From the IMG/VR virus record IMGVR_UViG_2541047821_000009: a stretch of DNA of 35,232 nucleotides; one strand, given 5' to 3'. The DNA comes from a virus. Its lineage: Duplodnaviria > Heunggongvirae > Uroviricota > Caudoviricetes. The position numbers and the translations under genes are program-made. Below are positions 1-1,479 of this stretch, in pieces (positions within the stretch are counted from its first letter, which is position 1; every line of letters begins with the position of its first letter). Under the pieces are notes generated by a model. That model worked only from the letters and a program-made list of their open reading frames with translations. It had not been told where the DNA came from and did not search any database.

Positions 1-1011
1 TTATAACGTCACTCCGCCTTTTAGTGGATTCAGAGTGACGGCGTTCTGCAGGTAGTCAGGCGCAAGGTGCGCATAGGTCATTGTCTGCTGAATGCTCGCA
101 TGCCCCAGAATCTGTTGCAGTGCAATTATGTTGCCCCCATTCATCATGAAATGGCTTGCGAATGTATGCCGCAGAATGTGGGTTGCCTGATTGGGAGGTA
201 TATCAGGTTTCACTCTGCGTAAAATCCCGCAAAACTTCTCATAATCTACCTTGAACAATTTGGCGCTGGCCTCCTCTTTAACTTTTTTCTCCAGTTCCTC
301 AGAAATCGGCACTGTTCGCTTTTTACCGTTTTTGGTTTTCAGGAAGGTAACCCTGCAACTTGTAATCTGTGCTGGTTTTAGCGTGGCAACTTCCGTCCAT
401 CTTCCTCCAGTGCTCAGACATAAAAGCGCGACAAGTAAGTCATCACCAGTCAAAACATTTAGCAGTTTTTCGATTTCCGCTTTTTCCAGGAACGTCATTT
501 CAGGGTTAGCCTCCGTCAGTGGCGGCAGTCCGTGAATTGGGTGTTGCCCGGAAAATTCATCCAATTGAATTAATTTTGTGAACATGCCGGATAATCGGTA
601 CATGTCGCGGTTTATCGTTGCAGCACTGATGCCGTCACGTAGTCGCATGGAGCGATAATCCATCAAAGCCCTTTTGTTCATCCGACTCACTGGTATATCA
701 CCTATGCCGCTGATGGTTTTGAGCAGATGATTAAACTCTTTTGTCCCATGCTCGTGGTTTTGCCCGTGGTATTTCCACCAGATGTCGAGCAATTCTGTCA
801 AAGTTCGGCGGTCTGCTCGCTGGCCTCCCCATTCTTTCTGACTGGCATTGGCGATTGTGTATCGCTCAAATGCTAGTGCTTCAGCTTTTCTTTCAAATTT
901 CCTGCGGATGCGTTTTCCGTCGCGACCGCGAGGTCTAATGTCCACTTCATAGCGACCATCATCGAGCTTCTTAATTGCCATAAGAAAGCCCTCCGGCGCT
1001 GTATTCACCAT
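1..1011 (-). CDS. int: Tyrosine recombinase (P2-type integrase)
   Basis: 336-aa ORF; C-terminal box II 'ILRHTFASHF' and catalytic Tyr context 'TMTYAHL'; sits at the prophage end beside the C repressor as in P2; minus-strand stop codon at bases 1-3. Confidence 0.9.
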   Translation of the reverse strand: MVNTAPEGFLMAIKKLDDGRYEVDIRPRGRDGKRIRRKFERKAEALAFERYTIANASQKEWGGQRADRRTLTELLDIWWKYHGQNHEHGTKEFNHLLKTISGIGDIPVSRMNKRALMDYRSMRLRDGISAATINRDMYRLSGMFTKLIQLDEFSGQHPIHGLPPLTEANPEMTFLEKAEIEKLLNVLTGDDLLVALLCLSTGGRWTEVATLKPAQITSCRVTFLKTKNGKKRTVPISEELEKKVKEEASAKLFKVDYEKFCGILRRVKPDIPPNQATHILRHTFASHFMMNGGNIIALQQILGHASIQQTMTYAHLAPDYLQNAVTLNPLKGGVTL

Positions 1012-1050: not shown

Positions 1051-1344
1051 TTAGCCAATCCTTTTCGCGGAGTGGTCGGATTCTGTTGATTCTGGCCCAA
1101 TGTGCGCGAGAGCCGGTGCGATTTGTCCCGCTTCCGGCGCTGTTTTATCTGTCATGAGCCATAGTGTGTATTTTTGGAACTGAGGTGCATTGGTGACCTG
1201 CAACACAACTTGGATGCCAGGGTCTTGATGGCCTCCTTCGTAATTCTTTAGCGTTCCTAACGCTATGCCGCTGATTTCACTGAATTTTGCTTGAGTTAGC
1301 CCTTCCGATTGTCTTATTGCTCTTAATTTCTGTGCGATATTCAT
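1051..1344 (-). CDS. C: Immunity repressor C (HTH, XRE-like)
   Basis: Internal Met 'MNIAQKLRAIRQSEGLTQAKFSEISGIA' gives a 97-aa product (P2 C is about 99 aa, from memory); helix-turn-helix signature; divergent from cox; the longer 158-aa track ORF is probably an upstream read-through. Confidence 0.75.
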   Translation of the reverse strand: MNIAQKLRAIRQSEGLTQAKFSEISGIALGTLKNYEGGHQDPGIQVVLQVTNAPQFQKYTLWLMTDKTAPEAGQIAPALAHIGPESTESDHSAKRIG

Positions 1345-1374
1345 TTGACATAGTCCTGACTTAATGACTATATT
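1345..1374 (+). promoter_or_regulatory. Candidate early promoter Pe (TTGACA-N18-TATATT)
   Basis: TTGACA at 1345-1350 and TATATT at 1369-1374 with 18-bp spacer, reading rightward toward cox; the -35 directly abuts the C start codon; TGACT direct repeat inside the spacer may be operator half-sites. Confidence 0.4.
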
Positions 1375-1375
1375 C

Positions 1376-1409
1376 CCCGAAAAGGTCATTAATCCAGAAC
1401 CTTTTCGGG
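1376..1409. repeat. Perfect 11-bp inverted repeat (CCCGAAAAGGT-N12-ACCTTTTCGGG) in the C/cox switch region
   Basis: Read directly: cccgaaaaggt (1376-1386) and accttttcggg (1399-1409); lies just downstream of the candidate Pe -10. Confidence 0.5.
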
Positions 1410-1479
1410 CGTGAGTCCAGCGCCGCTTAAACGGTTCCAAGCGGTTTTTAAGGGGCTGGATCCTATGAGGGTAACATAG

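Follow-up and report, generated by a model that had tools for sequence, protein, structure and literature searches.

The question raised by the locus considered here is how a 135-bp gap located between two divergently oriented phage genes is organized, and what function is devoted to the perfect inverted repeat it contains. The gap separates the gene of a P2-type immunity repressor, C, from the cox gene in the Caudoviricetes record IMGVR_UViG_2541047821_000009, analysed over its whole length of 35,232 nucleotides (hereafter the window). Judged from its sequence, this interval is the control region of a C/Cox switch of the WPhi type, within the P2 family of phages, with an early promoter Pe directed towards cox facing a promoter Pc directed towards C. 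The switch belongs to a well-known kind; its immunity class is new and uncharacterised. According to the reading that we favour, and that we hold to be probable, C represses Pe at two operators, O1 and O2, and the repeat encodes an RNA stem-loop, hairpin 1, that would act on the fate of the transcripts.

Two sites of the gap stand out from the rest of the window. The sequence TTGACA-N18-TATATT (1345..1374), which directly follows the C start codon, matches the sigma-70 consensus at 11 of 12 positions in the promoter scan, and no other site on either strand of the window reaches at least 11/12, for an average expectation of 0.44 in first-order Markov random sequences of the same size. The arms of hairpin 1 (1376..1409) are 100% complementary over 11 nt in the repeat search and separated by a 12-nt spacer; neither strand of the window contains another perfect inverted repeat whose stem reaches 11 bp with a loop of 3-20 nt, 0.2 being expected on average in random sequences of the same type. 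Since these two window-unique sites, the end of the Pe -10 and the start of hairpin 1, stand 1 bp apart in a single 135-bp gap, their association lies far beyond chance. Both had been pointed out in a first-pass annotation, and both are confirmed. The TGACT direct repeat also reported in the spacer does exist (1357-1361 and 1365-1369), but it remains near chance level, a 5-mer repeated within about 25 nt being expected in roughly 1 case in 5 by a rough estimate. Short as it is, and broken in the close relatives L044 and L086, which keep the 16-bp elements described below, it was discarded as an operator unit.

The promoter is regarded as the Pe of a WPhi-type switch on account of homology, of the register of the alignment with WPhi, and of the annotated layout of P2. 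The -35 and -10 of Pe, like the two operator positions, fall in register with their WPhi counterparts in the alignment; the GenBank record of P2 annotates a Pe -35 that overlaps the C start, with O1 and O2 on either side of the -10 and a Pc facing Pe. The initial proposal of a rightward lytic promoter directed towards cox agrees with both. The relatives used for comparison derive from about 100 loci encoding Cox relatives (310 further relatives on viral contigs lie outside this sample), which yield 70 distinct C-cox spacers and, finally, 28 non-redundant WPhi-type switches, or classes, whose C is 56-100% identical to that of the window. Among the 54 distinct WPhi-type switch sequences listed, nearly all retain the Pe -35, TTGATT or TTGATC standing in its place in a few; TATATT or a close variant serves as the -10 in all 28 classes. 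The promoter had been called P2/186-style: the P2/WPhi part of this assignment holds but the 186 part does not, because C consists of 97 amino acids with a single helix-turn-helix domain, versus about 190 amino acids and two domains for the CI of a 186-type CI/Apl/CII switch, and because no cII homologue is evident in the list of open reading frames, which is the only basis of this last statement.

With respect to repression, the WPhi operators O1 and O2 share the same sequence, TATTGGTGAC, and are located 34 bp apart from centre to centre, on either side of the Pe -10 (PMC1904263, PMC1904268). The window contains two 16-bp elements at the corresponding positions, of which the second (1385-1400) is the reverse complement of the first (1353-1368) at 13 of 16 positions; allowing up to three mismatches, the 16-mer is found nowhere else in the window. 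From their sequence and location, C most likely represses Pe by binding to these two sites that flank the -10. O2 appears in this class to be an inverted, not a direct, copy of O1, as the inverted match attains 10/12 in the best 12-nt window versus 7/12 for the direct match. By the same measure, inverted matches of 10-11/12 occur in the window and in L009, L014, L032, L034, L037, L039, L041, L055 and L085, direct copies in WPhi (10/12) and L040 (11/12), and palindromic cores in L045 and L011. A match of at least 10/12 is reached in about 0.5% of shuffles.

Other readings of the repeated elements were set aside. On a minus-strand RNA, the 16-bp dyad would form 15 of 16 pairs according to our own reading of the sequence, and this pairing was considered as a means to hide the ribosome-binding site of C; the operator reading is simpler because the WPhi and L040 copies are direct and thus unable to pair. 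A 24-nt direct repeat (ACATAG...TTAATGAyTAT, 1348-1371 and 1474-1497) exhibits 71% identity between copies located 126 bp apart, the second of which includes the start codon of cox as well as sequence upstream of the predicted Pc -10. The repeat may be an additional C site, or may coincide by chance with the conserved sequence encoding the Cox N-terminus. Its reading as a third C site, acting at Pc, was not adopted, as the second copy is this conserved coding sequence (MEVNDYV), and the repeat also occurs in WPhi in spite of the different WPhi operator.

The arms of hairpin 1 are not operators of C or Cox, as judged from the comparison of the classes, and the counterpart of O2 is held in the loop and the inner stem. 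This follows because the same arms occur with different operators, and different arms with nearly identical Cox: the AAAAGGT/ACCTTTT arms are common to classes with completely different spacer and loop elements (O1/O2), and the unrelated arms of L011, L034, L040 and L045 occur alongside Cox proteins of about 85% identity and Cox-box regions that hardly differ. Of the three options first suggested for the repeat, those of repressor operators and of Cox operators are thus abandoned, since the arms follow neither specificity across classes, whereas that of an RNA hairpin receives comparative support from covariation in the 28 classes. The arms might still build a dyad-symmetric site for a protein, i.e., an O2 extended so as to accommodate further C subunits, or else a site for Cox or for a host factor. 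Phage sequences flanking the WPhi operator do alter the C-DNA complexes, with three bands versus two, and the footprint of P2 C reaches about 12 nt beyond O2 (PMC1904263); the wobble pairs of the stem also lack strand bias, as a dyad acting at the DNA level would give. However, the arms neither resemble O1/O2 nor have a counterpart next to O1, their distribution tracks neither the specificity of C nor Cox or a host factor, and repression by C in WPhi stays intact after deletion of 6 or 10 nt upstream of O2 (PMC1904263), which removes left-arm bases according to our own reading of the WPhi sequence. Such a protein-binding role is accordingly rated as rather unlikely.

The selection of base pairing in hairpin 1 finds its support in the comparison itself, because the arms differ among the 28 switches but remain complementary beyond what is obtained with shuffles. 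A hairpin is predicted in all 28 classes, starting 1-6 nt after the Pe -10, with folding energies of -6 to -21 kcal/mol. Covariation was counted on a plain MAFFT alignment of the classes using the 11-pair structure of the window itself, with a shuffle control that ignores relatedness: 85.3% of the cells are paired versus 71.4% in shuffles (0 of 500 shuffles reach the observed value), and double changes occur in 10 of the 11 pairs, amounting to 42 cells for 13.2 expected. Each of the three pairs of the outer stem (helix 1) has double changes, with four Watson-Crick pair types at columns 13/40, and RNAalifold independently recovers 8 of the 11 pairs. When the 3' partner is slid by 1-3 columns, pairing falls to 31-60%. 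In an alignment-free arm-swap test, cognate halves pair at -13.5 versus -7.6 kcal/mol for non-cognate ones, the own partner having a median rank of 3 out of 27. These two controls partly address the relatedness of the classes and the fact that the structure stems from a single member. WPhi possesses arms TCAAAAGGT...ACCTTTTGA at the equivalent place, with two pairs changed on both sides compared to the window. Five classes exhibit wholly different arms, yet complementary over 8-14 bp; the arms read CCTCAATGGTTTTA/TAAAACCATTGAGG in L034, TTGTTGGT/ACCAACAA in L040, TTTCATTGGGCC/GGCTCAATGAAA in L011, and CTCAAA..TGGAACC/GGTTCCA..TTTGAG in L045.

The same data bear on the idea that the pairing is a by-product of the symmetry of the O2 operator combined with an inherited AAAAGG/CCTTTT sequence, without any separate function. 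Most classes share an identical inner arm sequence, the inner stem coincides with a palindromic operator in some of them, and the shuffle control is uncorrected for relatedness. But the outer stem, where double changes affect every pair, lies outside O2, the five classes with completely different arms have kept their complementarity, the sliding of partner columns preserves relatedness and nevertheless abolishes the signal, and no such flanking dyad surrounds O1. We therefore regard a functionless by-product as unlikely.

If the pairing is selected, the molecule that carries it has to be considered. The repeat had been placed at the 5' end of the predicted Pe transcript; its location is correct, but with Pe expected to start at about 1381, 7 nt downstream of the -10, some 5 of the 11 bases in the left arm would precede the start. 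Similarly, 3-6 stem pairs are positioned between the -10 and the expected start in most classes (5 in the window). The complete hairpin can thus be formed only in the leftward Pc transcript, or in DNA. The Pc promoter is predicted from an extended -10 of the TGnTAnnCT pattern, which is present in all 28 class sequences (24 by search pattern and the other 4 by eye) at a fixed distance of 11-12 nt from the right arm of a second stem-loop and the conserved CTGGATC motif, even where cox is located 19 to about 550 nt further away. This placement agrees with the Pc start of WPhi as derived from PMC1904263, where the WPhi Pe and Pc transcripts overlap by 82 nt and O2 lies 60 nt from the Pc start, the starts themselves being cited as previously determined. 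On alignment with these WPhi figures, the Pe and Pc transcripts of the window are predicted to overlap by about 83 nt.

The second element, stem-loop 2, encloses the Cox-box-like region. Its core of 6 bp, CCAGCC/GGCTGG, is present in 28 of 28 classes, in some of them as CCAACC/GGTTGG or CCAGTC/GACTGG, where the change is compensated; a hand-anchored script served to count its pairs, MAFFT having misaligned the left arm. Since its right arm abuts the predicted Pc start, stem-loop 2 would be 5'-terminal on the C mRNA. For the predicted Pc leader (1463 to 1330), folding yields -43.8 kcal/mol (z -3.8, 0 of 200 shuffles) and three elements: a 5'-terminal stem-loop 2 (1460-1416), hairpin 1 in full, and a small hairpin around the ribosome-binding site of C, which hairpin 1 precedes by about 19 nt. 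On the opposite strand, a Pe RNA starting 7 nt after the -10 would begin with a hairpin without any unpaired 5' nucleotide in 19 of 28 classes (mean -7.7 kcal/mol). A stem-loop starts 0-3 nt from each predicted 5' end, namely hairpin 1 for the Pe RNA and stem-loop 2 for the Pc RNA.

Several points weigh against this interpretation. Both predicted starts are transferred from WPhi through figures given in a secondary paper. The Pe leader (1381-1482) has a z of only -1.4 and its minimum-energy fold lacks the truncated hairpin, which is weak in the window (-2.7 kcal/mol). In L030, L045 and L011 the inner stem is itself a palindromic operator, so that the pairing potential may partly reflect operator symmetry. 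The reading of O1 and O2 as inverted conflicts with a generalisation in PMC2995052, according to which direct repeats seem to be recognised in all seven known immunity classes. A description of the repeat may already figure in the primary paper on the WPhi switch or in the one on the immunity classes. Finally, the wobble pairs show no strand bias (16 G.T versus 15 A.C) and the summed energies are equal on the two strands (-368 versus -374 kcal/mol), so that these data distinguish neither which RNA is selected nor the RNA from the DNA level.

This equivalence of the two strands, in wobble pairs as in energy, is compatible with a role of the repeat as DNA: a cruciform, or a hairpin, might be extruded when the DNA is negatively supercoiled or when the open complex forms, and initiation at Pe would be tuned in this way. 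Discriminator and start site are both covered by the left arm, whose first base lies 1-6 nt past the -10 in every class, and the single-stranded DNA fold reaches -11.1 kcal/mol with a z of -5.0. Nevertheless, an 11-bp stem with a 12-nt loop is poorly suited to cruciform extrusion, the region is transcribed in both directions so that RNA hairpins form anyway, and the constant position may have no other cause than the close spacing of the -10, O2 and the arms. A role at the DNA level appears improbable for these reasons. With a stem that is GC-closed and reaches -15 to -17 kcal/mol within a leader, the hairpin could also be taken for an intrinsic terminator or attenuator of one of the convergent transcripts. 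This is hardly credible and was rejected: no T-run follows the stem on the plus strand (CGTGAGTCC) or on the minus strand (GAATATAGTC), the terminator scan does not list the hairpin, and termination at this place would abolish the expression of cox or C.

Under the favoured reading of two operators combined with an RNA stem-loop, Pe would drive cox and the early operon rightward from about 1381 and be repressed by C bound to O1 (1353-1368) and O2 (1385-1400) around the -10, while Pc, with a start near 1462, would transcribe the C-int mRNA leftward. The stem-loop with O2 in its loop would then sit in the stretch of about 83 nt transcribed rightward from Pe and leftward from Pc. The leader of the C-int mRNA would contain the complete hairpin 1, after the 5'-terminal stem-loop 2 and before the ribosome-binding site of C, and the Pe RNA would start inside the left arm with a shortened 5'-terminal hairpin. 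Such hairpins could shield the 5' ends and the leader from 5'-end-dependent decay, or could limit or direct the pairing between the complementary Pe and Pc leaders. In a more speculative manner, hairpin 1 and stem-loop 2 might fold just behind a Pc polymerase that meets C at O1/O2, and limit its backtracking. We infer that the function of the hairpin belongs to one of these types, i.e., mRNA stability, sense/antisense interplay, or read-through of the bound repressor.

A wider and more tentative proposal, which we consider possible without thinking it likely, is that both covarying stem-loops constitute an RNA-level layer of the P2/WPhi-type switch, together with inverted operators in most WPhi-like classes, that of the window among them. 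Strong Pe transcription could, for instance, destroy or silence the C mRNA through loop-loop pairing of the leaders, or the leader hairpins could stabilise a weakly transcribed C mRNA. Stabilising stem-loops occur at the 5' end of E. coli mRNAs such as that with the ompA leader, and cis-antisense pairs arise from convergent promoters, e.g., the sar/ant pair of phage P22. The arrangement of the window recalls both by function, with stem-loops 0-3 nt from the predicted 5' ends and complementary, structured leaders with complementary loops, and its geometry fits a 5'-terminal stabilising stem-loop provided that the starts are located near 1381 (Pe) and 1462 (Pc). Unlike the sar/ant type of pairs, both RNAs of the window would be mRNAs, without a dedicated small antisense RNA.

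These proposals matter because the P2/WPhi switch is a textbook alternative to the lambda switch, and its description involves nothing more than two repressors and two convergent promoters. Should both stem-loops act at the RNA level, the model of lysogeny commitment would gain a post-transcriptional component, and a route would open to explain the approximately 100-fold effect of flanking phage DNA on the activity of WPhi Pe (PMC1904263). Inverted operators in most WPhi-like classes, if real, would speak against a direct-repeat rule for the repressors of the P2 family, and the inverted O1/O2 bears on the puzzle posed by the crystal structure of P2 C, a symmetric dimer that reads asymmetric sites. 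The conserved hairpin, which is common to WPhi itself, appears to be undescribed: there is no mention of it in the open-access switch papers PMC1904263, PMC1904268, PMC3448106 and PMC2995052, the primary WPhi and immunity-class papers being outside this search, and Rfam 15 was without a match, whether in 1200-1700 with E values up to 10 or over the whole window at the gathering score.

Among known systems, WPhi is the closest to the window. It shares the gene order int-C-(switch)-cox, a Pe -35 abutting the C start codon, a TATATT -10, operator elements (predicted ones in the window) of which one lies in the Pe spacer and the other some 34 bp downstream, an inverted repeat enclosing O2 at the matching position, the same extended -10 of Pc and, as far as predicted for the window, a transcript overlap of 82-83 nt. 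It differs by its two direct operators, as opposed to the inverted 16-bp copies of the window, by a Pe spacer of 17 bp instead of 18, by a stem of 9 bp instead of 11 with two compensatory pair changes, and by 19 extra nucleotides between Pc and cox. A C protein 71% identical to that of WPhi associated with different operator sequences would be expected to confer heteroimmunity.

P2 possesses convergent promoters between a C gene of roughly 100 amino acids and cox, a Pe -35 at the C start, and half-sites flanking the -10, an arrangement that is also predicted for the window. Its C and Cox are only 45% and 44% identical to those of the window, its operator half-sites are direct and 22 bp apart, its transcripts overlap by about 35 nt, and its Pc -10 reads TATAAT. 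P2 also contains an 8-bp inverted repeat, TTTAGTGC N10 GCACTAAA, in its transcript overlap (AF063097 25932-25957, i.e., L002 1433-1458); this repeat lies downstream of O2, ahead of the Pc -10 given in the annotation, and its right arm falls where Pc is expected to start, whereas the repeat of the window encloses O2. The P2-type relatives L088-L100 have inverted repeats at varying positions of their spacers, from which no common model was derived. The pR-pL region of 186 resembles the arrangement proposed for the window in its face-to-face lytic and lysogenic promoters placed under an immunity repressor and a second repressor of the excisionase type, and 186 CI binds inverted repeats (PMC1904268). 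However, CI is about twice as large, with two domains, and relies on distal sites and looping, in a system dependent on cII and pE; the window encodes a single-domain C and its putative 16-bp operator occurs nowhere else.

The features of the locus and the basis for each of them are collected in the following table.

Features of the C-cox switch region and its neighbouring genes (positions refer to the window)
Feature	Position	Strand	Basis or remark
int, tyrosine integrase, next leftward gene after C	1-1011	-	Open reading frame list/Pfam
C immunity repressor gene, 97 amino acids, helix-turn-helix	1051..1344	-	Pfam HTH_3 match; 71% identity to WPhi C, 45% to P2 C
C start codon ATG	1344..1342	-	Direct sequence reading
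Pe -35 hexamer TTGACA	1345..1350	+	Promoter scan; same position as the WPhi and P2 Pe -35
Pe spacer, 18 nt	1351-1368	+	
Predicted C operator O1, GTCCTGACTTAATGAC	1353..1368	+	In Pe spacer; WPhi O1 position
Shine-Dalgarno AGGA of C	1354..1357	-	Inside Pe spacer and predicted O1; read from sequence
Pe -10 hexamer TATATT	1369..1374	+	Promoter scan, WPhi alignment
Hairpin 1, arms CCCGAAAAGGT (1376-1386) and ACCTTTTCGGG (1399-1409), 12-nt loop	1376..1409		Perfect 11-bp inverted repeat
Predicted Pe transcription start	1380..1382	+	Usual 6-8 nt from the -10, plus WPhi figures (82-nt overlap, O2 60 nt from Pc start) from PMC1904263
Predicted C operator O2, GTCATTAATCCAGAAC	1385..1400	+	Hairpin 1 loop and inner stem; WPhi O2 position
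Stem-loop 2, TCCAGCGCC (1416-1424) paired with GGGGCTGGA (1452-1460)	1416..1460		Repeat search; encloses Cox-box-like region
Candidate Cox-binding boxes, direct repeats TTAAACGGTT and CCAAGCGGTT, 10 bp apart	1427..1446	+	Sequence reading
Predicted Pc transcription start	1461..1463	-	Transferred from WPhi by alignment
cox Shine-Dalgarno GAGGG	1467-1471	+	
Predicted Pc promoter, extended -10 TGTTACCCT	1476..1468	-	TGnTAnnCT pattern in 28 classes
cox gene, 90 amino acids	1480..1752	+	Pfam Phage_Cox, E 7e-25; 86% identity to WPhi Cox, 44% to P2 Cox

The switch region is 99.5% identical to that of Yersinia phage P37, a Peduovirus on which no publication was found in the literature search; prophages of about 40 complete E. 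coli genomes reach 99% identity or more, P2-like phages about 79% and WPhi about 76%. The placement of Pe, Pc and the likely operators, together with a fixed C start codon, thus represents a gain of annotation for the class present in these 40 or so genomes. The GenBank record of P37 gives C a length of 112 amino acids (L001 1552-1890, corresponding to window 1051-1389), with an ATG (window 1389..1387) that would fall inside the loop of hairpin 1, 15 codons earlier than 1344. The comparison of sequences supports the view that this start is placed 15 codons too early and that the correct one is 1344, because a conserved GGA Shine-Dalgarno lies 8-10 nt upstream of the latter in the related classes compared, and because stop codons occur, or start codons are missing, upstream of it in most of them. 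The start of the longer coding sequence of P37 is not conserved in related classes. On the other side of the switch, cox opens the rightward early operon and is followed by an open reading frame of 65 amino acids and a B-like gene, the latter annotated as a putative replication gene B in the near-identical P37 record.

The candidate Cox boxes belong to a series of similar AACGnTT repeats, spaced by 10-11 bp, which are conserved across the classes with about 80-90% identical Cox; the cox-box consensus of P2 is TTAAA(G/C)NC(A/C), with the same spacing of 10-11 bp (PMC3936717). The predicted Pe leader, in its minimum-energy fold, pairs the right arm of hairpin 1 (ACCUUU, 1399-1404) not with the shortened left arm but with the Shine-Dalgarno region of cox (GAGGGU, 1467-1472), and may in this way affect the translation of cox; this pairing is not general because cox lies further away in other classes.

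The discriminator of Pe (1375-1380, CCCCGA on the non-template strand) is C-rich in the window and in most related classes. C-rich discriminators are associated with short-lived open complexes and with sensitivity to supercoiling or ppGpp. Around the predicted Pc start, a GATC site for Dam methylation (1459-1462) is part of the CTGGATC motif conserved in 26 of the 28 switch classes. Depending on the locus, the distance from C to cox may be considerably larger than in the window: it amounts to 570-690 nt in L009, L010, L012, L015, L016, L020, L021, L039 and L044, owing to an insertion of about 420-540 bp after an intact module consisting of Pe, the hairpin, stem-loop 2 and Pc. Each of these nine inserts contains a small rightward open reading frame (about 60-110 amino acids), most of them also a leftward one (about 60-95 amino acids); they differ among the loci and look like moron cassettes.

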